A stretch of 64,000 bases of DNA, from positions 48,574-112,573 of the forward strand of contig JANOHV010000007.1 of NCBI GenBank assembly GCA_031406795.1, in the 5' to 3' direction. The notes beneath the pieces were generated by a model that was not told where the DNA came from, ran no database searches, and was given only the letters and a program-made list of their open reading frames with translations. Positions 2,445 through 43,389 of this stretch are shown piece by piece (within the stretch, counting starts at the first letter, position 1; the number at the start of each line of letters is the position of its first letter). A program made the translations under genes and the position numbers. The DNA is from Candidatus Rokuibacteriota bacterium (GTDB lineage Bacteria; JAUVQV01; DATDCY01).

Positions 2445-2579
2445 TCACCCAAAGATTAGCGAGATGAGCTGATCCTTGGTGATTTTTCTCTGGTCGGCAA
2501 TGTCGCCGAGCATCGCCGAGAGTGTTCCCACGCGGATCGGGTCATGATTCGGCACCGTGACATGGTGTTCAGGCGCTGA
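2445..2579 (-). pseudogene. HicA-like toxin remnant (C-terminal half only, no start codon, catalytic N-terminal half absent)
   Basis: Minus-strand frame reads ...HHVTVPNHDPIRVGTLSAMLGDIADQRK..., matching the HicA C-terminal pattern TVP-H...GTL..IL. It overlaps the 3' end of the HicB-like gene; there is no upstream ORF for the His-containing N-terminal half. Confidence 0.35.
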
Positions 2580-2775
2580 TCACTTCCTCGCGTACGAAGT
2601 GCAGACGGATAATCCGCGGCTCCTGCCCGGGTTCGAAGTGGCAGTGCACGGCATCACGAACATGGGTATGGAGTTGCTCGACGGAGTCCGCCTCGGTGAA
2701 TATGGATACTCCGAGAGCTCGCGCCTCATAGCCGCCCTCGGAGGATTCCGACACCATGAAAATCAGTTCGTTCAT
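2569..2775 (-). CDS. HicB-like / UPF0150-family antitoxin-like small protein (68 aa)
   Basis: Sequence LIFMVSESSEGGYEARALGVSIFTEADSVEQLHTHVRDAVHCHF resembles the HicB N-terminal domain (..EDGGYVVSVPDLPGCHTQGDTLEEALENAKEAI..). Its start overlaps the hsdS stop. Confidence 0.45.
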   Translation of the reverse strand: MNELIFMVSESSEGGYEARALGVSIFTEADSVEQLHTHVRDAVHCHFEPGQEPRIIRLHFVREEVISA

Positions 2776-4379
2776 CGTCTCCTCCCAATCAATTCGTCAA
2801 TCTTTGCCACAATCCGGTGCTGTTCGGCGATGGGAGGAATTGGGATCCGTACCAACTTTAGATTGGAGGCGCTGATACCCCAATTCCCAACCGTCGTCGC
2901 ACAATAAGTTTCTATGTCTTCACGTACTACTGCTGATTTAGCAAACCATCGAACAAGTTCCGGAAGGACGATCCTTGTAGACAAACGGAGGCGGATAAGC
3001 TTATCCGGAAAGATCTGACGTAAACCCAGGTAGCCGGTGTACAGGGAAAGGCGACCTACAAAGTCTCGATTACCATTGAAACGGCATGCCAGGAGATCAC
3101 CGGGTTTTAGGCTGAATTGCTCCTGGAGTTTGCGAGTTATCCCGCCAATGAGTTTATATTCTTCTTCAGCAACAATTCCGTCTCTTCTGATTGTCCCAGC
3201 GCTAATACGAAGGATCGGAACTCCATTTGTTGCCTCGTCTGGCTTCTTGGAATATCCGTTTCGGGAGTCGTCAAGGAGTATGTCCTCAATCCTGACCCAT
3301 TCCCAACCAGACGGAAGCTGAAGAGGTTGAATCTTCCCACCTTCTTGGGTCACCGATTCCTGACGTATCGCTCGGTCTGCTGATTTTAGTTGATCGTTCG
3401 CTGAACGTGTCCGCCCCAAAAGGGTAGCGACAGGCTCGTTCCTTGAATCCTGGGGGACGAGTTTGCCGCGAACGGCTAGGTTTAGGATGGTTTTGCGGAG
3501 TTGGTGGATGTGTTCGGGACGGGTGGTGAGGCGCGGGAGGTAGTTGAAGTAGAAGCGGGCGCTCTCCTCGAAGGTGGTGGGGGCGCCGGGTGTCTGGGTG
3601 GCGTCGCCGTTGTTCAGGCCGTGGAGAGTTGCCGCCACCAGGCGGTCGCGGCGCTTCTCGCGTTTGGTTTGCGCCGCCTCCAGTTCGTCGCACAGCGCCA
3701 TCAGCTCGTCCACCTTCGCCACGATTCGGCGTTGCTCGGCGAGGGGCGGAAGTGGAATTGCCGCGGCTCTTAGAAGTTTGAAATGGCGACCATACCCACG
3801 GCTGTCCAGTGGCAACCATCTGAGCGCGAGATAGTAAAATTCTGTCAGCACGCCAAGGGGATGAAGGAGTTTCACGCCATCTGCCCCGACTACGAAGTCA
3901 AAGTCGATTAGTTTTGTTTCTCGTGTATGGTCACCAAACAGGATGATCGGCGCATCAACATGGATGACTTTATGCTGATCGTTGCAATAACCCCTGATGA
4001 AAACCTTGCCTTGGTCGACTACAGGGAAAGCACCCGATTCCAAAACATCCTTTGTCTGAACCTTTTTCCCCATGTCCGAGATCAGATATGCTGGAAAAGT
4101 GGCAGGAACCCATTCCCATGTCGGCGGAATCTCGAACGGCATCTCTGATCTTTCAATCGACTCGAACGGCTCTTGGCTTCTGATCTCCCCGGCCTTCACC
4201 AGCTTCGTTTTCTCAGCCTGAATTTGTTTCAGCAACTCCCCCGCCGGCTCATCCTTCGGATCCTGCTCCACGAGCTTTCCGCGCACGGCCAGATCCAGGA
4301 TGAATCTTCGGAGGCGCGGGACGGCCTCGGGGGTGTCGATGAGACGATCGAAATGTTCGAGGAGGCGGGCGGGACTCAT
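2772..4379 (-). CDS. hsdS: Type I restriction-modification specificity subunit HsdS (two target-recognition domains)
   Basis: Long ORF 2772..4793; the real start is ATG 4379 (MSPARLLEHFDRL...), which overlaps the hsdM stop as ATGA. Shows the conserved HsdS repeat LAEQRRIVAKVDELMALCDELE / IAEQHRIVAKIDELIGRRR after each TRD. Confidence 0.85.
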   Translation of the reverse strand: MSPARLLEHFDRLIDTPEAVPRLRRFILDLAVRGKLVEQDPKDEPAGELLKQIQAEKTKLVKAGEIRSQEPFESIERSEMPFEIPPTWEWVPATFPAYLISDMGKKVQTKDVLESGAFPVVDQGKVFIRGYCNDQHKVIHVDAPIILFGDHTRETKLIDFDFVVGADGVKLLHPLGVLTEFYYLALRWLPLDSRGYGRHFKLLRAAAIPLPPLAEQRRIVAKVDELMALCDELEAAQTKREKRRDRLVAATLHGLNNGDATQTPGAPTTFEESARFYFNYLPRLTTRPEHIHQLRKTILNLAVRGKLVPQDSRNEPVATLLGRTRSANDQLKSADRAIRQESVTQEGGKIQPLQLPSGWEWVRIEDILLDDSRNGYSKKPDEATNGVPILRISAGTIRRDGIVAEEEYKLIGGITRKLQEQFSLKPGDLLACRFNGNRDFVGRLSLYTGYLGLRQIFPDKLIRLRLSTRIVLPELVRWFAKSAVVREDIETYCATTVGNWGISASNLKLVRIPIPPIAEQHRIVAKIDELIGRRR

Positions 4380-5815
4380 CGCAGCAGCGCCTGCTCCAGA
4401 ATGGCCTTGAGTTTGTCGCGGAGCTTTGCCGTCGCGGCCTCGCTCTCGTTGAGTTTGGCGAGCAGCTCGGCGGGATCGCCGTGGTCTTCCTCGACGGTGT
4501 GGGGATTCTTGATGTCGAGGTTGTAGCCGCGGGCCTTGATGTCGTCGATCGTGACCTTCCAGGCGATCTCGTTCTTCTCGCGCTTGTCCCACCAGTCGAT
4601 GCAGGGCTTGAAGTGCTCGAAGCGGATCGGCCTGGTCATGGAGTAGGCCTTCTGGCCGTCGGGGACGCGGTGCTCGTAGAACCAGACGGTTTGGGTCGGC
4701 GTCCCCTTCTCGAAGAAGAGCAGGTTGGTGCCGATGGAGGCGTAGGGCTTGAAGACGCTGTTGGGCAGCCGGACGATGGTGTGGAGGTTGCACTCCTCCA
4801 GCAGGTGCTCCTTGAGGCGCGTCTTGACCCCCTCGCCGAAGAGCGTGCCGTCGGGCAAGACCACGGCGGCGCGGCCCTGGGACTTGAGCAGGCGCACGAT
4901 GAGGGCGAGGAAGAGGTCGGCGGTCTCGCGCGTCTGGAACTGCTACGGGAAGTTGCTCTCGATGCCGTCTTCCTCGCGGCCACCGAAGGGGGGATTGGTC
5001 AGGACGATGTCCACCCGGTCGGACTGGGTGTAGCTGGTGTAGGGGCGCGCCAGGGTGTTGTCGTGACGGACGAAGGAGGGGTCCTCGATGCCGTGGAGCA
5101 GCATGTTCGTCACGCAGAGCATGTGCGGGAGCTGTTTCTTCTCGGTGGCGCGCAGGGCTCCCTGCATCTTACGTTCGGCGGCCGGGGTCTTCACGTAGCG
5201 CTCGCGCATGTGGCGGATGGCGCAGGTGAGGAAGCCGCCGGTGCCGCATGCGGGATCGTAGAGGATCTCGCCGGGCTTCGGGTCGATGCGGTCGGCCATG
5301 AAGGCGGTGACGGCGCGCGGGGTGTAGTACTCGCCCGCGTTGCCGGCGCTCTGGAGGTCGGTGAGGACCTGTTCGTAGATGTCGCCGAAGTGCTGACGCT
5401 CGCTGAGGTTGTTGAAGTCGATGCCGTTGATCTTGTTGATCACCTGGCGCATCAGCTGACCGGACTTCATGCAGTTGTAGGCGTCCTCGAAGACGTCGCG
5501 CACGACGCGGCGCCGGCCGTCCCGGGCGACGCCGGAGAGTTCCTTAAGGGTCGGGAAGAGCTTGTCGTTGATGAAGGCGAGCAGCGCATCGCCGGTCAGC
5601 CCCTCGGGGTCGGCGGCCCAGGCGCGCCACTGGAGCTTGGCCGGGATCGGCGAGCGGTAGCCCTTCTGGAGCTGCTCCAGCTCCTGGTCCTGGTCGTCGA
5701 TGATCTTGAGGAAGAACATCCAGCAGAGCTGGGAGATGCGCTGGGCGTCGCCGTCGACGCCGACGTCCTGGCGAATGATGTCCTGGATGGATTTGACGGT
5801 GGTGCGGACGGACAA
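4376..5815 (-). pseudogene. hsdM: Type I R-M N6-adenine methyltransferase HsdM, interrupted by one in-frame amber codon (TAG at 4943-4945)
   Basis: ORFs 4943..5815 (HsdM N-terminal domain, ..TNPPFGGREEDGIESNFP*) and 4376..4897 (..GRAAVVLPDGTLFGEG..) are in the same frame. Reading through the TAG gives FP*QFQTRETADLFLALIVRLLKSQGRAAVVLPDG, a colinear HsdM. TTG start with AAGGAAGAG SD. Confidence 0.7.
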
Positions 5816-5871
5816 GCTGCTTCCCTCGCTCTTCCTTCTTCGGATATTGCCAGGAGTCGACTTTCCCAGGC

Positions 5872-6165
5872 TCAGGCGCGGTCGATCCAGTACGACGGTT
5901 TGCGATGCAAATGCGCTACGGCAACCACAATCAGCGTTTCGCCATCCAGGCCGTTGATCATTCCGTAAGGGAAACGATTTAGCAGACAGCGCCGCAGTCC
6001 AGGATCGATCTCCGGGCAGCCGAGAGGAAAGGTAACCGATCTGCGGATCGCGCGATCGAACTCGTCGAGGAAGTCGTACCCGAGGTTGACTGCCTGCGTA
6101 TTGTACCAGACGAAAGCGTCGTCAAGTTCATGCTGGGCGGCCGCGAGAAGCCGGACTTCATGGAT
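5872..6165 (-). CDS. RelE/ParE-family toxin; lacks a canonical start codon (frame opens with ATC ACC ATC CAT GAA...)
   Basis: Minus-strand frame not in the ORF track: IHEVRLLAAAQHELDDAFVWYNTQAVNLGYDFLDEFDRAIRRSVTFPLGCPEIDPGLRRCLLNRFPYGMINGLDGETLIVVAVAHLHRKPSYWIDRA, a typical ParE/RelE. No ATG/GTG/TTG between the upstream stop and the conserved N-terminus. The listed ORF 5979..6161 is the wrong, S/T-rich frame. Confidence 0.5.
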   Translation of the reverse strand: MHEVRLLAAAQHELDDAFVWYNTQAVNLGYDFLDEFDRAIRRSVTFPLGCPEIDPGLRRCLLNRFPYGMINGLDGETLIVVAVAHLHRKPSYWIDRA

Positions 6166-6379
6166 GGTGATACTTGCCCATCACGGTCTGATAGTCTTCA
6201 GAGGCCGTCCGGCCGCCCAAGTATACGGCCCAGCGCTTGCGGGCTTCATCCGCCCAGATCCGATCAATCTCTGGGTCTGGCTTGTCCAAGTCCGTGAGGA
6301 TCGATTCCACGAGGTGCAACTTCTCCATGTCGGACAACGCACGGATCTCCTCTGCCAATTTCTCAGTTGAAGTCGTCAT
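6158..6379 (-). CDS. Putative addiction-module antitoxin (TIGR02574-like small acidic protein), partner of the ParE/RelE toxin
   Basis: 73 aa, MTTSTEKLAEEIRALSDMEKLHLVESILTDLDKPDPEIDRIWADEARKRW..., overlapping the toxin frame by 8 nt. SD aaggagag upstream. Confidence 0.6.
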   Translation of the reverse strand: MTTSTEKLAEEIRALSDMEKLHLVESILTDLDKPDPEIDRIWADEARKRWAVYLGGRTASEDYQTVMGKYHHP

Positions 6380-6532
6380 TGCGTCTCTCCTTGTTCGCTG
6401 TGTACCTCAATATAATCGAGGCTCCTGCAAATGTCTTGCTTGTGGTTCGACAGGCCCACCACGAACGGGATTATCGCTGAAGAATCAATATTCCGCCGTT
6501 CGCCCTGAGCAAGCGAAGGGTAATAACTATAC

Positions 6533-8997
6533 CTATGCAACGGCGTAGAGGGCGGATTGGAGTTCGTGGACGGCCCGCTCGAAGCCCTCTCGGCCGCCGA
6601 AGCGCCGCAGGAGCTGGACCGGGGTGCCCATGGTATCGAAAGGGGCGATCTTGAGGATCTGCGGGTCGTCGAGATCGGCAATCCCCTGGTCCTGGTACTT
6701 CTGCAGCAGCGCTTCGAGCACGGCGCGGGCCTGTTCGCCGTAGCGGGTGAAAACGTCGCGCTTGCGGACGCTGTCGACGCGCTCGCGCCGGGTGAGCGGC
6801 GGCTGGTCGAAGGCGACGTGGCAGATCAGGTCGAAGGCATCGAGGTCTTTCCCCACCTCGTCCGCGAGCGGCTCCAGCAAGAGACCCTCGTTTTCCAACT
6901 CCTCGATGACCGCTTCCTTGCGCTCGGCGGTGTTCCAGCGCCCGAGGAAGTCATCGAGGCTGGCGAAGTGCTTGCGCAGCGTGCGCTTGGAGTAGTCGCG
7001 GAGGCTCTCGGTGACGAGCTTCCCGTTTTCGTCGAGGTATTCGATGCGCTCGGTAAGGATGCGGACCTCGTGGCCGCGGATGAAGTACTTGGACGGGTGC
7101 TCGTTGGCGTTGCCGGGAGGAAGGCTGATATCAGGAGGCCAGGGCTGGCCGTCGACGATTACTTCGTCGTTGCCCGGTTCGGGCGGAATAGGGTCTTCAT
7201 CATCGACAGGCGGCGGCACATCGTCCGGTGGACTGACCGGATCCCCATCCCCCGGCTCGTAGATCTGCACCGGCTCGCCGTCGAAGTCCGGATCGGCAAA
7301 GTGGTTCGTGGCCTTGCGGAAATCGATCAGCGTGAAATAGAACTTCTTCGTGTCCTCATGCACGCGGGTGCCGCGCCCGACGATCTGCTTGAACTCGGTC
7401 ATGGAGCCGACTTCACGATCGAGCACGATCAGCCGGCAGGTCTGGGCGTCGACGCCGGTGGAGAGCAGCCGCGAGGTGGTGACGATCACCGGAAATCTCG
7501 CTTCAGGGTCGATGAAATTGCCGAGCGCGCCTGGCCCTCGGGGTCGTCGCCCGTGATGCGCATGACGTAGCGCGGGTTCTGGAGCGTCAGGTCCTGGTTT
7601 TCGTTGATCAGCGCCTGACGCATCCGGGCGGCGTGTTCGGTGTCCACGCAGAAGATGATGGTCTTCTGATAGCGATCGCCGCTCTCCCTCAGGAACTCGG
7701 TCACCCGGCGGGCGACGCGCTTCGTGCGCTCGTCGATCACGAGATTGCGGTCGAAATCCTTCTGGTTATAAATCCGGTCTTCAATCTCGTAGCCGTACGT
7801 GTCGGTCTCGCCGCGGGTGGGGCGATAGCCCTCCACATCGACGTCGAAGTGGACCTTCACCGCCTTGTAGGGCGCGAGGAAGCCGTCGCGGATCCCTTCT
7901 CTGAGCGAGTAGGTGTATACCGGTTCGCCGAAGTAGTGGATGTTGGAGACGTATTCGGTCTCTTTCGGCGTGGCGGTGAGACCGATCTGCGTGGCGGAGG
8001 AGAAATGGTCGAGGATCTCGCGCCAAGCGGAATCCGCTGCCGCACTGCCGCGGTGGCATTCGTCGATGACAATGAGGTCGAAGAAATCGGGAGAAAGTTC
8101 GCGGAAGAGCTTCTGGCGCTCCTCCGGGCCGGTGATTGCCTGGTAGAGGGCGAGGTAGATCTCGTAGGAGGTGTCGATGCGCCGCTGCTTGCGATCAACG
8201 GCGGTGGGGAGCCGGACCTCGCTGCCGTCCTCGCGTTCGATGGTCTTCGAGGATGTGCTGAGCTTGGCCATCGCGGCGCCGAAGGGACGGAAGTCGTTGA
8301 CCATCGTCTGGTCGATCAGAACGTTGCGGTCGGCGAGGTAGAGAATGCGCTTTCTGCGGCCGGCCTTCCAGAGGCGCCAGATGATCTGAAAGGCCGTGTA
8401 CGTCTTTCCGGTTCCGGTGGCCATGACGAGGAGGAGGCGATTCTGTCCCGCTGCGATGGCCTCGATGGCCTTGTTGATCGCGATGCGCTGGTAGTATCGC
8501 GGCTCCGTGCCTCCCGGATCCTCGTAGTAATTCTGGAGGACGACCTCCTCCTGGGCTGGTGCGAGGCTCTTCCAAGTTCGATATCTGGACCAAAGCCTTT
8601 CGGGGGAGGGAAAGGCGTCGAGGGAAAGGTTCGTCTCGGTCTGCTCGCCGAGGCCGGTCCGGTCGTGGAAGACAAAGCCGCTGCCGTTGGATGTAAAGAC
8701 GAACGGGATATCGAGGGTAGTCGCGTATTCCAGAGCCTGCTGCATCCCGGCGCCGACGGCGTTGTTGCCGTCCTTGGCCTCGATCAGTGCGAGGGGGATG
8801 TTCGGCTTGTGGTAGAGGATGTAATCGGCCCGTTTGGCCTTGCCCCGGGTGACCAGCTTGCCGCGGACGATGATCCGCCCTTTGGTGAACCCGACCTCCT
8901 CGCGAATCTGGGAATGGACATCCCATCCCGCTTTGACAAGAGCGGGAGTGATGAACTTGGTGCAGATGTCCCGCTCGCTGAGGTCCTTTACGGCCAT
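6533..8997 (-). pseudogene. hsdR: Type I restriction endonuclease subunit HsdR, frameshifted near 7486-7490
   Basis: N-part ORF 7486..8997 has helicase motifs ([19 protein letters not shown]) and ends ..[10 protein letters not shown]-part ORF 6533..7489 (GTG start) continues IVTTSRLLSTGVDAQTC..QIVGRGTR in a different frame (8997-7489 is not a multiple of 3). No slippery site or homopolymer at the junction. Confidence 0.7.
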
Positions 8998-9097
8998 AGA
9001 GCCATATCCACCTCTGTTTTCAATGAGTTCGAGCGATTTTGCGGTCGGGATAACGGACTGTCAAGCAGGAACGCCAACAATTTCATTATTTCTGGCT

Positions 9098-9116
9098 GTT
9101 TCAGCATTTGCTGAAA
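9098..9116. promoter_or_regulatory. Palindrome GTTTCAGCA-TT-TGCTGAAA, ~90 bp upstream of the hsdR start; reverse complement of the 28-47 site
   Basis: Seen directly in the hsdR 5' intergenic region (8998-9163). Confidence 0.5.
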
Positions 9117-9163
9117 TGAAGGTGATGTCTTTTCGAGCCGGATAGCAATGAGGAGCAGGGGGC

Positions 9164-9811
9164 TTACTCGAGAAGCCCGCGCTCCCGGGCCTTGAGCACG
9201 GCCTCGGTTCTCGAGCGCGCCTGGAGCTTGCGGTAGATCTTCCCGACGTGGGTGTGGACCGTGTGGGGGCTCAGCGCGAGCTCAGCCGCCAGTTCCTTCT
9301 CGGGCAGGCCGGTGGCGAGCCGGCGCAGCACGTCGCGCTCGCGCGCGGTGAGTGTCGGGCCCGCGGCCGGTCCCTTCCCCTGGCGCAGCTCTTCGACGAC
9401 GCTGCGCGCCACCCGGGCGGAGAGGGGTGAGCCGCCTGCAGCGGCCGTGCGCACCGCGGCGAGAATATCGACCGCGGAGGAGCCCTTGAGCAGGTAGCCG
9501 CTCGCGCCAGCCCGCAGCGCCGCGAGGAGGTGCTCCCGGTCTTCATGCATCGTCAGCACGACGATCTCGACGAGCGGGAAGTACTCCTTGATGGACCTGA
9601 TGACCTCGAGTCCCGGGAGGTCCGGCAATCCGAGGTCGACAAGGGCAACATTCGGCAAGGTGCGCCGCAGCCCGTCGACGGCCTCGCGGCCGGTGGCGTA
9701 GGCCCCGACGACCTCGATCCCCTCCGTCCCGTGGAACAGCGCGGCCAGGTAGTTCAGGGTCGCGCGGTGGTCCTCGACGATCGCGAGCTTCAGGTTGGTC
9801 TGCACTTTCAT
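9164..9811 (-). CDS. NarL/LuxR-family two-component response regulator (REC + LuxR HTH)
   Basis: ORF 9164..9916, trimmed to MKVQTNLKLAIVEDH (ATG 9811). REC motifs (VDLGLPD, phospho-acceptor Asp) and a C-terminal LuxR HTH (LTARERDVLRRLATGLPEKELAAELALSPHTVHTHVGKIYRKL). Confidence 0.85.
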   Translation of the reverse strand: MKVQTNLKLAIVEDHRATLNYLAALFHGTEGIEVVGAYATGREAVDGLRRTLPNVALVDLGLPDLPGLEVIRSIKEYFPLVEIVVLTMHEDREHLLAALRAGASGYLLKGSSAVDILAAVRTAAAGGSPLSARVARSVVEELRQGKGPAAGPTLTARERDVLRRLATGLPEKELAAELALSPHTVHTHVGKIYRKLQARSRTEAVLKARERGLLE

Positions 9812-35452: not shown

Positions 35453-36631
35453 CTACTTGTACAACAGGGAATTCGCGGTTCGCTGCTCAAAGGCGGCCAA
35501 CTCGCGCGACCACGCCCGTTCGAGCGCGGCGACCGGCTGCCCCGCATCCAGCCCTTCGCGGATGCGGGCGTCTCCCGTCAACAGGTCGATCGGCAGGCGA
35601 ACCGTCTCGTATTCGTAGGGGGGCGGTCGCCAGAGTTCGGCGTCGGGCCAGAGCCGGCGAATCTCCGTCAGCAGCGCGAGCGTCGTGCGATAGGGACGGT
35701 AGGCGCGCGGGTCGACGACGTGGATCTGCAGGCCGCCGCAGACCTGCCCCGCCCACTTCTGGAATGTCGGCTGGAACCAGGCTTCCCGGAAGACCGCCCC
35801 AGGGAGGCGGCGGCGGCGCAGCGCGGCGCACAGCGGCGCGGGATCGATCCAGGGCGCGCCGCAGCTCTCGAAGGGCCGCGTAGTGCCCCGTCCCTCCGAG
35901 AGCAGTGTCCCTTCGAGGAGCACCTGGCCGGGGTAGACCAGCGCCGTGTCGGGCGTCGGCATGTTCGGGCTCGGCGGCACCCAGGGCAGCCCGGTGTCGG
36001 TGAAGAGCAGCCGCCGGCGCCAGCCGCGCAGCCGGATGACGTGCAGGTCGACGTCGATGCCCCCTTCGGCGGTGAAGAGCCGCGCCAGCTCGCCCATCGT
36101 GAGGCCATGGCGCATCGGGAGCGGGTGGGCGCCGACGAAGGAGAGCTGCGCGGGGACGAGGAGGTTGCCTTCGGTCGTGCCGCCGACCGGGTTTGGCCGG
36201 TCGAGAACCACGATCTTCTTCCCGAGGCGGGCCGCCTCCTCGAGGCAGTAGCGCAGCGTCGTGATGAAGGTGTAGACGCGGCAGCCGACATCCTGCAGGT
36301 CGACCAGCAGCATGTCGATCCCCGCGAACATCTCCGCGGTCGGTCGGCGAACGTCGGCGTAGAGCGAGTACACCGGGATGCCGAGCGCGGGGTCGCGCCC
36401 GTGCCGGGATTCGACCATGTTGTCCTGCTGCTCGCCGAAGATGCCGTGCTGCGGTGAAAAAAGCGCCGTGAGGCGCCGGCCGAATTTTTTCGCGACGAGG
36501 TCGCGGGCGTGCCGCAGGTTCGCGTCGACGGAGGCCTGATTGCAGAGCAGACCGAGCCGGGCTTGCGCGAGGAATCCCGGCGGCTTGGCGAGCAGGGCCT
36601 CGAGTCCGGTGGTGACGCGTCGATTGGCCAT
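35453..36631 (-). CDS. DUF1343-family protein (NamZ-like exo-beta-N-acetylmuramidase family)
   Basis: 392 aa with family-typical blocks (..LFSPQHG..VYSLY..LLVDLQDVGCRVYTFITTL..VVLDRPNP..GLPWVPPSPNMPT..). Confidence 0.7.
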   Translation of the reverse strand: MANRRVTTGLEALLAKPPGFLAQARLGLLCNQASVDANLRHARDLVAKKFGRRLTALFSPQHGIFGEQQDNMVESRHGRDPALGIPVYSLYADVRRPTAEMFAGIDMLLVDLQDVGCRVYTFITTLRYCLEEAARLGKKIVVLDRPNPVGGTTEGNLLVPAQLSFVGAHPLPMRHGLTMGELARLFTAEGGIDVDLHVIRLRGWRRRLLFTDTGLPWVPPSPNMPTPDTALVYPGQVLLEGTLLSEGRGTTRPFESCGAPWIDPAPLCAALRRRRLPGAVFREAWFQPTFQKWAGQVCGGLQIHVVDPRAYRPYRTTLALLTEIRRLWPDAELWRPPPYEYETVRLPIDLLTGDARIREGLDAGQPVAALERAWSRELAAFEQRTANSLLYK

Positions 36632-36865
36632 GGCCGGCGTCCCTTCCCCCCCCGATCCGATGTTTGCAGCTGTCCCCGACCCTGGATGGCGACTATAGCA
36701 TGCCGGCAGGCGCTTGATTTTCTTGACACAAGTTCAAGGAACTGGTAGGTAATTCAGTCGCCGTGACGGGGACGGGCGCTTGCCGGAACAAAGGTGGACG
36801 CAATTGCCGTGTTTGTCCGTCGCGCTCGAACAGTGGTGGGTGAGAACCCGGGCAAAGGAGCGCAC

Positions 36866-37330
36866 ATGCAAGAGTTGAGTTTCGCGGAGATTATCAGCTA
36901 CGCCACGATCGCCGAGGACAACGCCATCGCCTTCTACAAGAGCGCGGCGGCGATGGCTTCGCAGCCGAGCGTGAAGAAGTTCCTCGAGGAGCTGGCGGCG
37001 ATGGAAGCCGGCCACAAGCGGCACCTCGAGAAGCTGATCCAGAAGTTCGAGAAGAGCAAGTGCATCCCGAGGCTCCAGAAGGAAATCCACACCCTCGGGT
37101 ACGCCGAGTTCATCAAGCCGATCACGCTCGACGCCGACTCCTCCTACAAGGACGCGATCGAGGCCGCGATGGTCAAGGAGCGCGAAGCGGTCGCCACCTA
37201 CGAGAAACTGTCGATCTACGTCGACGACCCGGACGCCAAGCAGGTCTTCAAGCTGCTGCTCGAGGAGGAGAAGAAACACCTCAAGCGCTTCGAGACCGAG
37301 TACGACGATTTGACGAATCAGAACTGGTAG
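36866..37330 (+). CDS. Rubrerythrin/erythrin-like ferritin-fold diiron protein (no rubredoxin domain)
   Basis: ORF 36794..37330, trimmed to MQELSFAEIISYA (ATG 36866, AAAGGAG SD). Two E...EXXH pairs (EDNAIAFY...ELAAMEAGH; EREAVATY...EEEKKH). Confidence 0.7.
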   Translation: MQELSFAEIISYATIAEDNAIAFYKSAAAMASQPSVKKFLEELAAMEAGHKRHLEKLIQKFEKSKCIPRLQKEIHTLGYAEFIKPITLDADSSYKDAIEAAMVKEREAVATYEKLSIYVDDPDAKQVFKLLLEEEKKHLKRFETEYDDLTNQNW

Positions 37331-37345
37331 GGGGACGAGAGAGCC

Positions 37346-38203
37346 ATGTTTGAGATTCTGGAGAAGAAAGTCTGGCTGGCCGAGGAGCCGCGGATCGTCG
37401 AGTTCCTCGTGAAGGCCCCCGAGATCGCCCGCGCGCATCACGCCGGGCAGTTCGTGATCGTCATCCCGGTCGAGGGCGGCGAGCGCATCCCGCTGACGAT
37501 CGCCGACAGCGACGCCAAGGCCGGCACGATCAGCCTGGTCTTCCAGGAGGTCGGCGCCTCGACGATCCTGCTCGGCCGCCTCGAGAAGGGGCAGCCGATC
37601 CCGCACGTCGCCGGCCCGCTCGGCAAGCCGACGCACATCGAGAGGTTCGACGGCGCGGTGGTCTGCGTCGGCGGCGGCATCGGCGTCGCGCCGATCCACC
37701 CGATCGCCAAGGCCATGAAGGCCGCCGGCAACCACGTGATCTCGATCCTGGGAGCGCGCTCGAAGAACCTGATGATCTACGAGGACCGGATGTGGGCCGC
37801 GAGCAACGACGTGCGGATCACCACCGACGACGGTTCCTACGGCCGCAAGGGTTTCGTCACCGACGAGCTCAAGGGGATCATCGAGGGCGGCACGAAGGTC
37901 GGCTGCGCAGTCGTGATCGGGCCGCCGATCATGATGAAGTTCACCTGCAAGGTCACCGAGCCGCACAAGATCCCGACGTTCGCCAGCCTGAACACGATCA
38001 TGGTCGACGGCACCGGGATGTGCGGCGCCTGCCGCGTGACCGTGGGCGGCAAGACCAGGTTCGTCTGCGTGGACGGCCCGGAGTTCGACGGGCACCAGGT
38101 GGACTTCGACGAGATGATGGCGCGCCAGCGGCAGTACCTCCCCGAGGAGAAGCAGGCGAAGGACCGCTGCCAGAGCGGCCACGGCACCTGCCACACGGTC
38201 TAG
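37346..38203 (+). CDS. nfnA: NfnA/SudB-type FAD and [2Fe-2S] ferredoxin-NADP+ reductase-like subunit (PyrK/GltD-small-partner family)
   Basis: 285 aa. MFEILEKKVWLAEEPRIVEFLVKAPEIARAHHAGQFVIV...GGGIGVAPIHPIAKA...CGACRV (Cys cluster at the C-terminus). Confidence 0.8.
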   Translation: MFEILEKKVWLAEEPRIVEFLVKAPEIARAHHAGQFVIVIPVEGGERIPLTIADSDAKAGTISLVFQEVGASTILLGRLEKGQPIPHVAGPLGKPTHIERFDGAVVCVGGGIGVAPIHPIAKAMKAAGNHVISILGARSKNLMIYEDRMWAASNDVRITTDDGSYGRKGFVTDELKGIIEGGTKVGCAVVIGPPIMMKFTCKVTEPHKIPTFASLNTIMVDGTGMCGACRVTVGGKTRFVCVDGPEFDGHQVDFDEMMARQRQYLPEEKQAKDRCQSGHGTCHTV

Positions 38204-38255
38204 CCCGGGCGACCGGCGAGCGTGCAACCCAAGAGCGATCGAGGACGACGAGACG

Positions 38256-39752
38256 ATGACTGAAGAGCAGAAGGACCAGCCGAAGCCCGCCCCCGCCGCG
38301 AAGCCCAAGGTGCCGCGGCAGGCGATGCCCGAGCAGAACGCCAAGAAGCGCGCCAAGAACTTCGAGCAGGTGACCACCGGCTACACCGAGGAGCAGGCGC
38401 AGCTCGAGGCCTCGCGCTGCCTCTCGTGCAAGAAACCCAGCTGCGTCGCCGGTTGCCCGGTGAGCGTGCCGATCAACGTCTTCATCACCGCGATCAAGGA
38501 GAAGGACTACGCCAAGGCGGTCGCGGCGATCAAGTCGACGAACCTGCTCCCCGCGGTCTGCGGCCGCGTCTGCCCGCAGGAGATTCAGTGCGAGAGCAAG
38601 TGCGTGATCGCCAAGAAGCAGGAGTCGGTCGCGATCGGGCGCCTCGAGCGTTTCGTCGCCGACTGGGAGGCGAGCCAGGGCGATTCCCCGGTGCCCCCCA
38701 AGCCGAAGCAGACCGGCAAGAAGATCGCCGTCTGCGGCTCCGGCCCCGGCGGTCTGATCTGCGCCGGGTACCTGATCCAGGCCGGCCACGACGTGACGAT
38801 CTTCGAGGCGCTGCACAAGGCCGGCGGTGTGCTGGTCTACGGCATCCCGGAGTTCCGGCTGCCCAAGGCGATCGTGCAGCGCGAGGTGGACTACCTCGTC
38901 AAGCTCGGCTGCGAGCTCAAGACCGACTTCATCGTCGGCAAGACGCGTACGATCGGCCAGCTGATGCAGGAAGACGGCTATGACGCGGTCTACATCGGCG
39001 TCGGCGCGGGGCTGCCGTGGTTCATGGACATCCCGGGCGAGAACCTCAACGGCGTCTACAGCGCGAACGAGTACCTGACGCGCAACAACCTGATGAAGGC
39101 CTTCGAGTTCCCGAATTCGGACACGCCGATCAAGCGGCACAAGAATGTCGCGGTGGTCGGCGGCGGCAACGTGGCGATGGACTCGGTGCGCACGGCGCTG
39201 CGTCTCGGCGCGGACAACGCGTACATCGTCTACCGCCGCGGCATGGAAGAGCTGCCCGCGCGCAAGGAAGAGGTCGAGCACGCCGGGCACGAGGGCGTGC
39301 AGTTCAAGATCCTCACGGCGCCGGTCAAGGTGATCGGCAACAAGGAAGGTTGGGTCTGCGGGCTCGAGTGCCTGGAGATGGAGCTGGGCGAGCCGGACGC
39401 CTCGGGCCGCCGCCGCCCGATCCCGAAGGAGGGCTCGAACTTCGTGCTCGAGGTCGACGCGGTGATCCCCTCGATCGGCACGGGCGCGAACCCCTTGCTG
39501 GCGCAGACGACCCCGGACATGCAGTTCACCAAGCGCGGCTACATCGCCGTCGAGTCCGAGGCCACCGGCCGCACGACCAAGAAGGGCGTCTTTGCGGGGG
39601 GCGACATCGTCACCGGCGCGGCGACCGTCATCCTCGCGGCCGGCGCGGGCCGCGCCGCGGGCATGGCGATCGACAAGTTCCTCAAGGACGGCGAGTGGTG
39701 GGATCCGAACGCGCCGAAGCCCGAGGCGGTGCCGGCGCCGGCGGCGAAATAA
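38256..39752 (+). CDS. nfnB: NfnB/SudA/GltD-type NAD(P)H-dependent oxidoreductase subunit (glutamate synthase small-subunit family, 2x[4Fe-4S] + FAD + NAD(P))
   Basis: 498 aa. CLSCKKPSCVAGCPV..CGRVCPQEIQCESKC..IAVCGSGPGGL..VVGGGNVAMD. Confidence 0.85.
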   Translation: MTEEQKDQPKPAPAAKPKVPRQAMPEQNAKKRAKNFEQVTTGYTEEQAQLEASRCLSCKKPSCVAGCPVSVPINVFITAIKEKDYAKAVAAIKSTNLLPAVCGRVCPQEIQCESKCVIAKKQESVAIGRLERFVADWEASQGDSPVPPKPKQTGKKIAVCGSGPGGLICAGYLIQAGHDVTIFEALHKAGGVLVYGIPEFRLPKAIVQREVDYLVKLGCELKTDFIVGKTRTIGQLMQEDGYDAVYIGVGAGLPWFMDIPGENLNGVYSANEYLTRNNLMKAFEFPNSDTPIKRHKNVAVVGGGNVAMDSVRTALRLGADNAYIVYRRGMEELPARKEEVEHAGHEGVQFKILTAPVKVIGNKEGWVCGLECLEMELGEPDASGRRRPIPKEGSNFVLEVDAVIPSIGTGANPLLAQTTPDMQFTKRGYIAVESEATGRTTKKGVFAGGDIVTGAATVILAAGAGRAAGMAIDKFLKDGEWWDPNAPKPEAVPAPAAK

Positions 39753-39814
39753 CGACGGGACCCGCCGGGCACATTCCGGCTGGTCGCGACGATCGGCGAC
39801 GGGATTCATTCACC

Positions 39815-39844
39815 GTCGTAGGGGCGGGGTTGATCCCCGCCCGC
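39815..39844. repeat. REP-like hairpin element GTCGTAGGGGCGGGGTTGATCCCCGCCCGC (same family as 17411-17488 and 41224-41253)
   Basis: Seen directly, downstream of the nfnB stop. Confidence 0.7.
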
Positions 39845-39861
39845 TCCTGAACGATCACGAA

Positions 39862-39896
39862 GCCCTCCCCCGGCGAACCTGGGGGAGGGCTTTTCT
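39862..39896 (+). terminator. Rho-independent terminator of nfnB (GCCCTCCCCC-ggcgaacct-GGGGGAGGGC-TTTTCT)
   Basis: Perfect 10-bp GC stem followed by a T-tract. Confidence 0.8.
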
Positions 39897-39992
39897 GTCC
39901 CCGACACCGGAATCCCGTGCCGGAGGTTGATCCCCGGTGGAACAGTGGGGCGGGAAAACCTCATGCGCTACCTGATCCGTGCACCGTTCTCG

Positions 39993-40222
39993 ATGAACAA
40001 GATCTGCTACGACCCAAAAACCCAATCCGTGATCCGGTGGCGCGATGCGGATCGTCGCGTTCATCGAAGAGCCTCGGGTCGTGAGCGCCATCCTCGAGCA
40101 TCTGTCGCTCTGGGACGAGCCGCGGGGTGGATTGATCTTCACCGGGAGGCGACGCGGCGGTGGTCTGCGTCGCGATGCGCAGTGGTACATACAACGGCAT
40201 GGCGGCGCGTGAGTGCTGGAAC
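39993..40222 (+). pseudogene. Degraded transposase C-terminal fragment, possibly IS91-like (two frames: ..CYDPKTQ.. then MRIVAFIEEPRVVSAILEHLSLWDEP..)
   Basis: Frame-shifted short reading frames. The tail motif IAFIE-P-V(V/I)..IL.HLGLWD recalls the C-terminus of some transposases; the family assignment is from memory and uncertain. ORF 39927..40376 mixes these frames. Confidence 0.3.
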
Positions 40223-40278
40223 TTCATCGCCAGCTTTGTCCAGCCGCCTCCCTGGGAGAAGTCGTGAACAGCCCAGGA

Positions 40279-40653
40279 TCACTTCTTTCGGTAGTACCTC
40301 ACGTCCGTCAGCCCATCGAAGTGCGCGTCGGTCGTCCAGAGCGTGGCCCGGTATCGGTGCGCGGTGGCGAGGATGACGCTATCGGCGAGCGGAAGCGCGT
40401 GCTGCAGGCCCAGGTCAGCAGCAAAGATCGCCAGCGATTCGTCGAGGGGTGCGAGCCGTCCCTTGCTCATCTGGGCGGCAACTTCAGCCGCCAACTCCTG
40501 ACCGCGCCGACGCTTGATGATCTTGTAGACTTCGAGAAGACAGACGGTCGGCACAAGCAGGGCGCTTGTGTCACAGATCGGTTTGGCGAAAGCTGCCCCG
40601 TGTTGCCCGTCCATCAGGAACTCGATCCAGCCGGAGGAGTCGACGAGGTTCAC
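40279..40653 (-). CDS. vapC: PIN-domain VapC toxin (type II TA)
   Basis: 124 aa. MNLVDSSGWIEFLMDG...LLVPTVCLLEVYKII...DSVILATAHRYRATLWTTDAHF (PIN acidic residues). Stop overlaps the vapB start. Confidence 0.8.
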   Translation of the reverse strand: MNLVDSSGWIEFLMDGQHGAAFAKPICDTSALLVPTVCLLEVYKIIKRRRGQELAAEVAAQMSKGRLAPLDESLAIFAADLGLQHALPLADSVILATAHRYRATLWTTDAHFDGLTDVRYYRKK

Positions 40654-40865
40654 CCGCGATCCTCTTCGTCGGCGTCGCGGTCGAAGTCGAGCGGCACGCC
40701 TTTGAGAATTCCGCGCATCTCCCGGATCGGCCGGTTCGGGACCAGCCGCACCTGGTCGCCGATCGTGACGAGCTGCAGCTTCTGCCCGGGTTTTATCCTG
40801 AGCTGTTCACGGACTTCCCGCGGAATGACGATCTGGTACTTGGACGAGACGGTCACGGCTGCCAT
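40650..40865 (-). CDS. vapB: AbrB/MazE/SpoVT-family antitoxin VapB
   Basis: ORF 40650..41102, trimmed to MAAVTVSSKYQIVIPREVREQLRIKPGQKLQLVTIGDQVRLVP... (ATG 40865; alternative ATG 40877). Swapped-hairpin AbrB fold signature. Confidence 0.7.
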   Translation of the reverse strand: MAAVTVSSKYQIVIPREVREQLRIKPGQKLQLVTIGDQVRLVPNRPIREMRGILKGVPLDFDRDADEEDRG

Positions 40866-40980
40866 AGGCACCTCCATCGATCGATGATTTGTAAGACGAT
40901 GGTACCGGTGCCGGCGGCGAAAGGCAAGGATGCCAGTGCTATCTGGTTTTGCGACTGGGCCGGGCGCGACTGGCTCGGCA

Positions 40981-41310
40981 TCGAAGCGATCAAATCGGCG
41001 CCGACAACGCGAACATCGTCTACCGCCGCGGCGTGGAAGAGCTGCCCACGCGCAAGGAACAAGAAGGGCGTCTTCGCGGGCGGCGATCGACAAGTACCTC
41101 AAGGACGGCGAGTGGTGGGATCCAAACGCGCCGAAGCCCGCCGAGGCGGCCCCGGCGGCGAAGTAACAACGAAACCCGTCGGCCAGATTCCGACGGACCG
41201 TGCAGCGACGGAATCCAATCGCCGTCGTAGGGGCGGGGTTGATCCCCGCCCGCAGGTAACGGACACCAGAGCCCTCCTCCGGCGACGAGCCGGGGGAAGG
41301 TTTTTTTGCC
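40981..41310. repeat. Decayed, internally deleted second copy of the nfnB 3' end plus REP element and terminator (~85-90% identical to 39209-39270, 39578-39605 and 39668-39900)
   Basis: Direct comparison: gcgccgacaacgcgaacatcgtctaccgccgcggcgtggaagagctgccc... / ...tcgacaagtacctcaaggacggcgagtggtgggatccaaacgcgccgaagccc...gcggcgaagtaa...gtcgtaggggcggggttgatccccgcccgc...gccgggggaaggttttttt. Confidence 0.8.
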
Positions 41311-41365
41311 CGTCGGGGAGGCGCCGCTCAGCGGCGTTTGACATGCGTCACGTTACGCATTACAT

Positions 41366-41483
41366 TTGCGTCGTGATCAAGACCTTCGCGGACCGCCACA
41401 CCCTCAATGGCGCATTTGCTTTCGCTTTGCCGCCGGCGATGCGTTCGACGTCGAGATTGCGGATTACCACGAGGAGGGTGTGA
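41366..41483 (+). pseudogene. higB: HigB (RelE-like) toxin remnant: N-terminal ~10 residues joined out of frame to the C-terminal ~25 residues, middle deleted
   Basis: Frame 1 reads VIKTFADRHTLNG (HigB N-terminus, compare MIKSFKHKGLE). An overlapping second frame reads PHPQWRICFRFAAGDAFDVEIADYH (the conserved HigB C-terminus ..W.RICFR...GDAYDVEIVDYH). The whole locus is only ~115 nt; a full HigB is ~92 aa. Confidence 0.5.
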
Positions 41484-41484
41484 C

Positions 41485-41808
41485 ATGGCGATCGGGTTCA
41501 ACGGCAAGCGGGACATCGCGCCGACCCATCCGGGGGAGATGCTCCGGGAGGACTTCATTCCGGACTACGGGCTCACCGTCGCCGGCTTGGCGAGCGCCCT
41601 CGGGGTTTCGCGCCAGAGCGTGAACGAGGTGCTTCGCGAGCGGCGCGCGGTGTCCCCGGAGATGGCACTTCGTCTCTCGCGGCTCTTCCACAACTCCCCG
41701 GAGTTCTGGCTGAACGCGCAGCGCGCGGTGGATCTCTGGAATGCCGCGCGTCACATCGAGAAGGAGATCCAGCGCATCAAGCCGCTGAATGCGATCGTCG
41801 AGGGGTGA
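41485..41808 (+). CDS. higA: HigA-family antitoxin (XRE-type HTH)
   Basis: ORF 41407..41808, trimmed to MAIGFNGKRDIAPTHPGEMLREDFIPDYGLTVAGLASALGVSRQSVNEVLRERRAVSPEMALRLSRLF (ATG 41485, GAGGAGGG SD); a classic HigA. Confidence 0.75.
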   Translation: MAIGFNGKRDIAPTHPGEMLREDFIPDYGLTVAGLASALGVSRQSVNEVLRERRAVSPEMALRLSRLFHNSPEFWLNAQRAVDLWNAARHIEKEIQRIKPLNAIVEG

Positions 41809-41812
41809 CGAT

Positions 41813-42664
41813 ATGGAGCGCGTGCAGATCCAGTCGATTCTGGCCCGACTCGAGGAGCAGGAAGATGTCCGGATCGTTTACGCCTGCGAGTCCGGCAGCC
41901 GGGCTTGGGGATTTCCGTCGGCGGACAGCGACTACGACATCCGGTTCATCTACGTCCGGCCGCGGGACTGGTATCTTTCCGTCGATCTCGAGCACCGGCG
42001 CGATGTCATCGAGCGCCCCGTGCAGGGTGTGGTCGACCTCAGCGGCTGGGACTTCCGGAAAGCCCTTGGGCTCTTCAGGAAGTCCAACCCCCCGCTGCTG
42101 GAATGGTTGAACTCGCCGATCGTCTATCTCGAAGCGACAGGCGCGGCCGCCAGGCTGCGCGCGCTGCTCGGGGAATTCTACTCCCCGGCGGCTTGCGCCC
42201 ACCACTACCTGCACATGGCGCGGGGGAACTTCCGCGAGTACCTCAGCGGGTCGGAGGTCTGGGTCAAGAAATACTTCTATGTCCTGCGCCCGCTGCTGGC
42301 GGTGAAGTGGATCGAAGCCGGGCACGGCGTGGCGCCGATGGCGTTCTCGGTTCTCGTCGACCGTATCATCACGGATCCCGATCTCAAAAATGCGATCGCG
42401 CGTCTTGTCGAAGCCAAACGCCGCGGTGACGAGCTGGACCGGGGGCCGATGATCCCCGCGATCACCGCCTTCATCGAACAGGAGATGTCGCGGCTCGAGA
42501 CCTCGCCGCTGAGTCTTCCCGGCGCAGCCCCGCCGATCGATCCGCTGAACGAACTGTTCCGATCAGTGCTGGAGGAGGCCTGGGCCGACTCGCGTCATGG
42601 GCGGAGGGTGGCACCCGCTCCCGCGGTCGCCCTCGTCGCGGAACTTGGCATCGAGCCCGATTAA
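41813..42664 (+). CDS. Predicted nucleotidyltransferase-domain protein (Pol-beta superfamily NTase with a C-terminal helical domain; PF10127-like)
   Basis: ORF 41789..42664, start at ATG 41813 (MERVQIQSILARLEEQEDVRIVYACESGSRAWGFPSADSDYDIRFIYV; GS...D.D NTase motif). A decayed duplicate of parts of this gene lies at 46430-46620. Confidence 0.6.
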   Translation: MERVQIQSILARLEEQEDVRIVYACESGSRAWGFPSADSDYDIRFIYVRPRDWYLSVDLEHRRDVIERPVQGVVDLSGWDFRKALGLFRKSNPPLLEWLNSPIVYLEATGAAARLRALLGEFYSPAACAHHYLHMARGNFREYLSGSEVWVKKYFYVLRPLLAVKWIEAGHGVAPMAFSVLVDRIITDPDLKNAIARLVEAKRRGDELDRGPMIPAITAFIEQEMSRLETSPLSLPGAAPPIDPLNELFRSVLEEAWADSRHGRRVAPAPAVALVAELGIEPD

Positions 42665-43013
42665 CCGAGAGATTTCTTCGTGCTCGGCGTCAAGAAGAAC
42701 GCTGGGCGGTGCCGATCGTCGCGCGCGGGCCGCGTCCATCCTTCGAAATGGGACAGGTCCTCCCCGGTATGAAGCTGGAAGATCTCGGTGTCACCGAGAT
42801 GGCGCGCCGTATCGCCGCCTTGGTGCTCCTGGAGCCGGAATTGGACGCGAACTGCCAGCGCGTAACCGCCGCGACCTATCCCTGGCCGCGGGAAGCTTCT
42901 GACCTACTACTTTGAAAAATCATCGCGTGGGGCGACGATATAGACAAAACACAAGCCTCTAGAGTCTTGCGGGCGAGACGCCCGCGCTAGGGAATTGTGA
43001 TAGCATTCACGTC

Positions 43014-43304
43014 ATGAGCAGGGAAGAGATCATCGGCGCCCTGCACGCGGCGCTGCCAACGATTCAGCGGAAATATCATGTCCAGAGGCTTGCGCTGTTC
43101 GGCTCAGCCGCGCGCGGCGAGCAGATTCCGACGAGCGACGTCGACCTTCTTGTTGAATTCGACGAGCCGATCGGCTTGTTCGATTTCGTCCGTCTCGAGC
43201 GTTCTCTCGGAGAAATCCTGCATGCCAACGTCGACCTGGTCTCGGCGAAGGCGCTGAAACCGGCCATTCGCGAGGAAGTATTGAGTCAGGCGGTGTACGT
43301 CTAG
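43014..43304 (+). CDS. mntA: MntA-type minimal nucleotidyltransferase antitoxin (HepT/MntA type VII TA)
   Basis: 96 aa. ..LALFGSAARGEQIPTSDVDLLVEF... (GS...D.D motif). Confidence 0.75.
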   Translation: MSREEIIGALHAALPTIQRKYHVQRLALFGSAARGEQIPTSDVDLLVEFDEPIGLFDFVRLERSLGEILHANVDLVSAKALKPAIREEVLSQAVYV

Positions 43305-43311
43305 CCGGGGT

Positions 43312-43389
43312 GTGAAGCTCTATCTCGCGGATATCCTGGAAGCCATCGAGAAGATCGGGCGGTACGGGTCGAATCGGACCTCCGGTTGA
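43312..43389 (+). pseudogene. hepT: HepT (HEPN/DUF86) toxin remnant: only the first ~26 codons remain, then a stop
   Basis: (V)KLYLADILEAIEKIGRYGSNRTSG* matches the DUF86 N-terminus (..RLYLEHILEAIEKIERY..); the rest of the ~115-aa protein including the Rx4-6H motif is absent. Confidence 0.4.

Follow-up and report, generated by a model that had tools for sequence, protein, structure and literature searches.

How do toxin-antitoxin (TA) modules disappear from bacterial chromosomes, and is an antitoxin that outlives its toxin kept for a purpose, or is it simply next in line? The question is raised by a stretch of 64,000 nucleotides (nt) from a Candidatus Rokuibacteriota bacterium (GenBank assembly GCA_031406795.1, contig JANOHV010000007.1, positions 48,574 to 112,573 of the forward strand), here called the window, which carries seven TA modules. 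The toxin is broken in four of these (HicA, ParE, HigB and HepT) and intact in three (VapBC1, VapBC2 and AbiE), and a full-length antitoxin stands beside each broken toxin. The modules were probably caught at differing stages of ordinary, neutral-to-beneficial TA erosion, and the antitoxins would be intact by virtue of a constraint on the order of loss and the recency of the losses.

Four broken toxins and their antitoxins

The lesions were defined by alignment of the window with fetched loci encoding close relatives of each antitoxin or toxin. References with an intact toxin were loci L171 and L176 for HicA, L085-L087 for ParE, L088 for HigB, and L168-L170 with L175 for HepT; the toxins of these relatives pass the Pfam gathering thresholds of HicA_toxin, ParE_toxin, HigB-like_toxin and HepT-like. 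Because close relatives have an intact toxin at the same position, the lesions are derived, and each can be placed to the base. The four antitoxins (68, 73, 107 and 96 amino acids, aa) match the lengths in relatives, and a check for their truncation was negative. The initial annotation, which had described four damaged toxins beside full-length antitoxins, is borne out in this respect.

Are the lesions real? Sequencing or assembly error might be suspected for ParE, where only one base is affected and the gene is otherwise perfect. Independently assembled Logan contigs of SRR20217198 (L001, L002 and L084) reproduce all four lesions exactly, and their only mismatches with the window, at 46238, 48690 and 6752, are outside the lesions. 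The lesions are thus not assembly errors.

Of HicA, the last ~43 codons and the stop remain (2445-2579, minus strand). The open frame encodes SAPEHHVTVPNHDPIRVGTLSAMLGDIADQRKITKDQLISLIFG followed by a stop, equivalent to residues ~37-80 of the 80-aa HicA of L171 and L176. It matches positions 32-54 of 58 of PF07927 only (E = 0.011), and its 16.2 bits fall short of the cut-off of 27; the intact L171 protein reaches 47.7 bits over positions 2-55. The C-terminal half without a start, as first described, is explained by a 115-nt deletion between short imperfect repeats that took away codons 1-38, and with them the start and the TGSH motif. The deleted segment covers MRLPRSLGGADLVKALARIAYAPTRQTGSHIRLSYPGP, part of the N-terminal half with the Gly-Ser-His (GSH) motif, whose histidine is the catalytic residue in characterised HicA proteins. 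There is no start codon at the native position; an in-frame GTG further inside could give 36 aa. When the 44-aa remnant was searched against a set of 5.8 billion proteins, a single 28-aa match and no full-length relatives were found, and full-length relatives were obtained instead by fetching the loci around relatives of HicB. The HicB-like antitoxin (68 aa; 2569-2775, minus strand) is matched by relatives over residues 1-67 of 68, and its ATG overlaps the stop of hsdS (ATGA).

The ParE/RelE-family toxin gene (5872-6161, minus strand) is full length, as had been noted, and 85-91% identical to intact 96-aa relatives, which begin MKVRLL. It had also been described as lacking any start, and this does not hold: the native ATG is present at 6161-6159, where it overlaps the antitoxin stop. 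The lesion is a frameshift at codon 3. One G is absent between 6155 and 6156 (ATGAAGGTCCGG has become ATGAA-GTCCGG), which puts the ATG in the +1 frame, and translation from it yields a 60-codon out-of-frame product. The ParE frame itself matches positions 1-85 of 89 of PF05016 at 14.9 bits, vs 23.9 for an intact relative and a cut-off of 23. The antitoxin (Unstab_antitox, 73 aa; 6158-6379, minus strand; PF09720, 37.8 bits vs 23.3) is likewise 73 aa in L085-L087. With 16.8 bits against a cut-off of 31.9 for TIGR02574, it is TIGR02574-like, not a member of the equivalog.

In HigB (41373-41470, plus strand) the initial 10.7 codons (41373-41404) run directly, and out of frame, into the final 22 (41405-41470). 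The internal deletion and the out-of-frame fusion had been recognised at the outset; alignment with the intact HigB of L088 (93 aa; PF05015, 55.9 bits) shows that the 41404|41405 junction corresponds to a loss of 181 nt, a number not divisible by 3, that the GTG start at 41373 is kept, and that the sequence resumes after the jump at QWRICFRF...DYH. The stop is destroyed as well, by a 1-nt loss (CAT TGA to CAC-GA). What is left are residues 1-11 and 72-93, in different frames; relatives encode the 93-aa protein just upstream of higA. The C-terminal piece has no Pfam match and the N-terminal piece is too short to scan. HigA (107 aa; 41485-41808, plus strand) matches positions 3-80 of 81 of TIGR02607 at 104.8 bits (cut-off 47.7).

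HepT is truncated, as reported initially, but not after ~26 codons. The remnant (43297-43389, plus strand) consists of 23 homologous codons, 7 unrelated codons and a stop (43387-43389); homology ends at 43365, and the start is changed from ATG to ACG (43297-43299). The rest of hepT has been replaced at the 43365|43366 breakpoint. Intact relatives (118-125 aa; PF01934, 108 bits; 84-94% nt identity) have their ATG inside the last mntA codons and carry MRNKVVHEY, the Rx4HxY region, at residues ~75-83 (PF01934/NF047751), which is absent from the 23-codon remnant. The change of start is synonymous in the overlapping mntA frame (TAT to TAC at codon 95, in the 43304 region). The antitoxin MntA, a minimal nucleotidyltransferase (96 aa, as in relatives; 43014-43304, plus strand), scores 53 bits for PF01909 (cut-off 21) and 52 bits for NF047752, below its cut-off of 60, and the GS...DxD motif FGSAARGEQIPTSDVDL is present.

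The four lesions are each of a different mutational type: deletion of 115 nt between repeats, a frameshift by 1 nt, deletion of 181 nt with loss of the stop, and loss of the start with 3' replacement. They represent four independent inactivations, a claim of the initial annotation that the alignments support.

Programmed frameshifting was considered for both ParE and the HicB-HicA pair and rejected. Relatives show a simple ancestral arrangement in each case, and each lesion is a plain deletion.

The hicA deletion and the HicB-like family

Did the hicA deletion occur once or more than once? Relatives of the 68-aa HicB-like protein are carried by 80 genomes, and in most of these loci HicA is intact and ~80 aa long, with its start codon overlapping the hicB stop (ATGA) and the sequence MKLPRDLSG..TRQTGSHLRLTT..GEHHVTIPNHDPLRVGTL..LF. 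In the window the EHHVTVPNH... portion of HicA starts 9 nt past the HicB stop. The deletion junction joins CGCATGAG, at the hicB stop and hicA start, to CGCCTGAG, which represents hicA codons 38-40, and regenerates exactly the HicB ending Val-Ile-Ser-Ala-stop.

Within the 90% cluster to which the window protein belongs, L171, L173 and L176 have an intact 80-aa HicA, and the same 115 nt are absent in L172, L174, L003 and the window, i.e. in four loci from four different samples and three genomic contexts. Alleles with the deletion form no group of their own: 2 nt separate L172 and L174 from the intact L171, the intact L176 is the allele nearest to L003, and the window allele is 12-16 nt away from all other compared alleles. 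This non-grouping suggests at least two independent deletion events, in a comparison of six alleles with 22 variable sites where recombination is possible. It is therefore conceivable, though we hold the view tentatively, that this truncation is recurrent rather than a one-off accident. A recurrent, repeat-mediated deletion that preserves HicB exactly is the only point in this work that we have not seen described before, and its support is moderate. If true, this HicAB subfamily carries a built-in, precise and high-frequency route to disarm its toxin, and sequence features at an antitoxin-toxin junction can bias the manner and speed of toxin loss. As a weaker addition, the C-terminal HicA fragment may still be made as a small protein, to judge by the in-frame GTG and a ratio of non-synonymous to synonymous substitution rates (dN/dS) of 0.22.

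A DNA hairpin that would pair the deletion repeats was also considered. The intact hicB-hicA junction folds no more stably than shuffled sequences (z = -0.10), and the idea was discarded.

Is the 68-aa protein a HicB? It has no match in Pfam or NCBIfam scans. Among 28 members of its family, four have weak DUF1902 matches (best E = 0.023) and one a match to HicB_lk_antitox (E = 0.19). A single-sequence AlphaFold2 (AF2) model (predicted local distance difference test score, pLDDT, 78) has a beta-beta-alpha-beta arrangement with no significant fold match in the PDB, and a sequence search of the PDB gave no match. With no curated HicB model matched, the label would rest mainly on the conserved pairing with HicA.

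The HicB-HicA module is tightly bounded, at ~360-475 nt (2438-2796, minus strand, in the window; also in L003, L171-L174 and L176). It is found in at least three unrelated contexts: beside hsdS, beside a Fic-like gene and beside a gene with a helix-turn-helix (HTH) and a peptidase M78. In the window, the last codons of hsdS (LIGRRR-stop) are encoded by the leader of the module, and hsdS is ~110 aa longer than that of a relative.

Why are the antitoxins intact?

TA modules are addictive, and loss of the antitoxin first is lethal while the toxin is active. The first viable step in decay would be inactivation of the toxin, since a mutation that kills the antitoxin would be lethal in the presence of an active toxin. 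Decaying modules should therefore be enriched in the state where the toxin is broken and the antitoxin intact. Intact, half-dead and erased modules appear to coexist in the window as stages of such decay. The orphan antitoxins are probably still expressed, given that HigA keeps the operon promoter, that HicB, which is coupled to hsdS, has kept its ribosome-binding site, and that the ParE antitoxin lies inside the hsd operon. They would be intact mainly through recent toxin loss and the order constraint, and not through a demonstrated new role.

How recent are the losses? Changes specific to the window in ParE are 10.5 synonymous to 3.5 non-synonymous (P = 0.0003 vs neutrality), as in lineages with intact ParE. 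ParE would therefore have been under selection through most of the separate history of this lineage, which suggests a recent frameshift. The other remnants, though too short for such a test, agree with this: those of HicA (4 synonymous to 3 non-synonymous changes) and HepT (2 of 69 nt differ from an intact relative) also look young.

Is the bias toward toxins itself significant? Broken toxins number four of seven and broken antitoxins none of seven (Fisher one-sided P = 0.035, two-sided P 0.07). In related loci, whose toxin state was assigned by a heuristic classifier, a degraded toxin beside an intact antitoxin is common. The 78 assessable HicB loci include 53 with an intact ~80-aa HicA partner, 22 with a degraded one and three with none; in 76 assessable HigA loci, the toxin next to the full-length antitoxin is degraded in 17 and absent in four. 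The frequency is thus 22-28% of ~150 related loci. In Photorhabdus, pseudogenisation affected the toxin only in 185 copies, both genes in 186 and the antitoxin only in eight, with ~37% of modules non-functional (PMC13617665). Given the measured 22-28% or the published ~37%, the probability of four or more broken toxins in seven is 0.05-0.24, and the observed breakage exceeds chance only weakly.

Several points weigh against erosion with order constraint and recent loss as the explanation. The sample is small, as the one-sided P value for four vs none of seven reflects. The loci behind the base rate were chosen for an intact antitoxin and cannot show the reverse state, and some degraded toxins in relatives known from metagenome-assembled genomes (MAGs) may be assembly errors that inflate the rate. 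The view is of 64 kb of a genome, and intact paralogous toxins are possible elsewhere. Pairwise dN/dS of the antitoxins is 0.07-0.16, as would also be expected if orphan antitoxins remained under selection. Between the window and L003, both of which bear the deletion, HicB has 5 synonymous and 0 non-synonymous changes, and this too fits continuing selection.

Could the antitoxins then have been kept by selection after the toxins were lost? They might act against homologous toxins borne by plasmids or phages (anti-addiction), neutralise paralogous toxins or, in the case of HigA, serve as a transcription factor. All four antitoxin reading frames are intact, the higBA promoter is kept, and changes specific to the window in MntA are 5 synonymous to 0 non-synonymous. 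The HicB ratio has P = 0.0007 if the deletion is a single ancestral event shared by the two loci. It does not settle the matter, since the deletion has apparently arisen more than once and the alleles that carry it are not monophyletic. More generally, the toxin remnants have similarly low ratios, as the ParE and HicA counts above indicate, so that most of the divergence predates the lesions and is uninformative on later selection. The ParE antitoxin is somewhat relaxed in the window lineage (6:4, vs 7:0 and 3:2 in other lineages, whose ParE is intact). Nor is a toxin-independent role obvious for the HicB-like protein, which we take to lack a DNA-binding domain, or for MntA, of which HepT is to our knowledge the only known substrate. 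No homologous intact toxin was found among the window genes examined (64 kb), in which no dedicated tblastn with intact toxins was run. Anti-addiction does have experimental precedent (PMC2654758, citing Saavedra De Bast et al. 2008). On balance we regard retention for function as unlikely, and the data would fit order constraint and recent loss with no need for a retained antitoxin function.

Might there be no toxin bias at all, only general decay of the region that struck four toxins and no antitoxin by chance? Other genes are indeed degraded (hsdM, hsdR, a further copy of RlaP, duplicated gltD 3' ends and a piece of higA, described below), and the two-sided Fisher P of 0.07 is in its favour. 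Toxins and antitoxins are, however, mutational targets of similar size, and the antitoxin was spared precisely in two cases: the hicA deletion rebuilds the HicB stop, and the hepT start mutation is synonymous in mntA. Together with the published excess of toxin-first events, 185 vs 8 (PMC13617665), this makes chance alone quite improbable.

Bypass of the lesions may be dismissed along with artefact as highly improbable: ParE could be made by ribosomal frameshifting or from in-frame ATC codons, which lie 2 and 4 codons upstream of its homologous region, and the 36-aa HicA fragment, with its low dN/dS, from its GTG, but initiation at ATC has ~1% or less of the efficiency of ATG in Escherichia coli, the ATG coupled to the ParE antitoxin stop now opens the 60-codon out-of-frame product, three of the four lesions are large deletions or replacements beyond any recoding, the HicA remnant is without the GSH motif region, and the HepT remnant is without the whole catalytic part.

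Relation to known systems

The modules belong to known families (HicAB, ParE-Unstab_antitox, HigBA, MntA-HepT, VapBC and AbiE) and are themselves uncharacterised; the pattern is a known erosion pathway. For HicAB, the ParDE-like Unstab_antitox-ParE, HigBA and MntA-HepT, gene order and overlaps are those of the families, as are the sizes and signatures of the antitoxins and of the intact toxins in relatives. The window differs in that its toxins are without start codons and/or catalytic parts, and in the 68-aa HicB-like protein that no curated HicB model recognises.

The closest parallel is the two-step erosion of chromosomal type II TA modules described by Belot et al. (Mol Biol Evol 2026, PMC13617665). 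There, too, the toxin is hit first, by truncation, small deletion or point mutation, and the antitoxin open reading frame (ORF) persists; the modules lie in small islets of high turnover, and intact, toxin-only and erased states coexist. The differences are that the host of the window is an uncultured high-GC bacterium, not Photorhabdus or E. coli, known here from sequence alone, and that the window has one module of type VII (MntA/HepT) and another that lies within a type I restriction-modification (R-M) operon. Decay of ccdO157 (Mine et al. 2009, as cited in PMC2654758) is toxin-first erosion of the same type; that review, by Van Melderen and Saavedra De Bast, covers both ccdO157 decay and the anti-addiction idea.

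Orphan antitoxins are also frequent in Klebsiella pneumoniae, with a median of nine per genome (Horesh et al., NAR 2020, PMC7192599). They are full length, uncoupled from a functional toxin and often in their original context, as in the window, and were proposed to be degrading pairs or anti-addiction factors. In contrast to these, a toxin remnant is recognisable beside each antitoxin in the window, and origin by decay in situ is thereby demonstrated and not inferred. As for anti-addiction, a chromosomal antitoxin could neutralise a homologous toxin of a mobile element (Saavedra De Bast et al. 2008, as described in PMC2654758). The experimental case given there, ccdEch, is a complete TA pair, whereas the antitoxins in the window stand beside broken toxins.

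The window thus offers a clean, base-resolved example of TA death, in which the toxin goes first, by any mutation, and the antitoxin outlives it. The phenomenon has already been quantified by large surveys, and no new question is opened. For annotation, the four toxin frames are to be called pseudogenes, and counts of functional TA systems should leave out their antitoxins.

Two eroding islands

The window has ~65% GC, with two accessory islands of lower GC at ~0.2-9 kb and 39.8-47.4 kb. All TA genes are confined to these islands, with ~30 kb of long core genes rich in GC at third codon positions (GC3) between them. The initial annotation had placed four toxin losses in one 45-kb stretch; the number stands, but the losses belong to two small islands ~30 kb apart. 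It had also spoken of toxin purging. Erosion that strikes the toxin first agrees with this, but decay is not limited to toxins: the neighbouring non-TA genes are decaying too (a nonsense mutation in hsdM, a frameshift in hsdR, remnants of RlaP and gltD), and the islands are eroding in general.

The second island is a patchwork that follows downstream of a gltD-like gene and is bounded on its other side by an RNase E/G gene. It contains vapBC1, the HigB remnant with higA, an RlaP nucleotidyltransferase, mntA with the HepT remnant, a glyoxalase-family gene, a DUF1428 gene, a 399-aa ORF, vapBC2, a second degraded RlaP copy and a nitroreductase. Both VapBC pairs are intact, and AbiE apparently so, as first stated. 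VapC1, a PIN-domain toxin (40279-40653, minus strand), matches positions 2-115 of 120 of PF01850 at 49.6 bits, and its AbrB/MazE-type antitoxin VapB1 (40650-40877, minus strand) matches PF04014 (45.7 bits) and TIGR01439 (49 bits). An IS91-type transposase remnant suspected beside this pair, at 39927-40212, found no support from Pfam or from tblastn against plasmids. VapB2, of the ribbon-helix-helix (RHH) type (45730-45975, plus strand; weak PF09957 and PF01402 matches), overlaps the PIN-domain toxin gene vapC2 (45972-46400, plus strand; TIGR00028, 136.6 bits, positions 2-141 of 143).

Around higBA, a promoter-like site, TTGACA-17-TACATT (41338-41366, plus strand), is retained and conserved in L088. 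As its -10 box ends 7 nt upstream of the GTG of HigB, the higBA transcript may be leaderless or nearly so; HigA keeps a GGAGG ribosome-binding site. In L175 (~530-760; JGI 3300086401) HigB keeps SRRLPTDLLRRAVR and has lost its C-terminus, beside a 107-aa HigA of the same 90% cluster as that of the window; this different degradation points to an independent toxin loss in a sister lineage.

How was the 3' end of hepT lost? The RlaP-family nucleotidyltransferase next to HigA (41789-42664, plus strand; PF10127, 305 bits) is intact and is a neighbour, not a TA component. A second RlaP copy lies directly after vapC2 (46418-46602, plus strand; repeat families D1 and D5; PF10127 match on a 63-aa ORF) and is internally deleted in comparison with 41956-42338. 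The order in L175 is mntA, intact hepT, degraded higB, higA, rlaP. The HepT truncation and the RlaP remnant at 46418 look like the two ends of one replacement, and the second RlaP copy and the L175 gene order suggest that the block of glyoxalase, DUF1428, 399-aa ORF and vapBC2 replaced the 3' end of hepT, higBA and the 5' end of rlaP in one event.

The 3' end of the gltD-like gene is present three times on the plus strand. The true end with its terminator hairpin (39665-39876; repeat families D2 and D3) and a degenerate second copy with terminator region (40995-41285; D4, 94%; D7, 90%; D2, 85%; D3, 80%) flank the vapBC1 segment, and the third copy lies at the far end of the island. This third copy, of 31 nt (47369-47399), is fused to a 25-nt higA 5' fragment (47369-47426 together; D8, 81%; D9, 96%); the fragment (47402-47426) is identical to 41514-41538 at 24 of 25 positions, and the fusion is the trace of a fully erased module. 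The three copies suggest that sequence was inserted or duplicated at the gltD 3' end more than once. No match was obtained when the gltD-like protein was looked up exactly. The 399-aa ORF (44304-45503, minus strand) has no PADLOC or NCBIfam match and only a weak one to a DisA_N/diadenylate-cyclase-like domain (PF02457, E = 0.004, residues 256-363).

The first island lies on the minus strand in the order abiEii, abiEi, HicA remnant, hicB-like, hsdS, hsdM, ParE frame, Unstab_antitox, hsdR. The toxin AbiEii, a nucleotidyltransferase (183-1175, minus strand; PF08843, 73.3 bits; PADLOC AbiEii, E = 4e-15), appears intact, and its real start is likely near 1067, overlapping the abiEi stop. The antitoxin or regulator AbiEi (1066-2115, minus strand; PADLOC AbiEi, E = 3e-17) also appears intact and has no match in Pfam or NCBIfam profile scans.

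The R-M genes surround the ParE module. Its position between hsdR and hsdM (5872-6379, minus strand) is conserved in L085, L086 and L087 (84-93% nt identity), and L087 has the same gene order as the window (hsdR, antitoxin, ParE, hsdM, hsdS), with ParE and hsdM intact. The specificity subunit hsdS (2772-4379, minus strand; PF01420; tblastn with L087 HsdS) is an open frame of 535 aa. By tblastn against L087, the type I methylase gene hsdM (4376-5815, minus strand) is a pseudogene with an in-frame TAG at 4943-4945: the window reads NFP*QFQT where the intact 484-aa HsdM of L087 (84% identical) has NFPAHFRT, with Ala at the site of the stop. Stop-codon reassignment was rejected for this TAG, as hsdM is the sole affected gene and long core ORFs looked uninterrupted in a stop-to-stop survey. 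The gene hsdR (6533-8997, minus strand) is split by a frameshift near 7525-7552, where tblastn changes frame, and its two ORFs, 7486-8997 (503 aa) and 6533-7489 (318 aa), match positions 6-469 and 483-803 of 807 of the PADLOC REase_I profile. The hsdR of L087 is also split, ~400-650 nt further upstream in the gene, and these different break sites indicate that the restriction subunit was inactivated independently in the two lineages.

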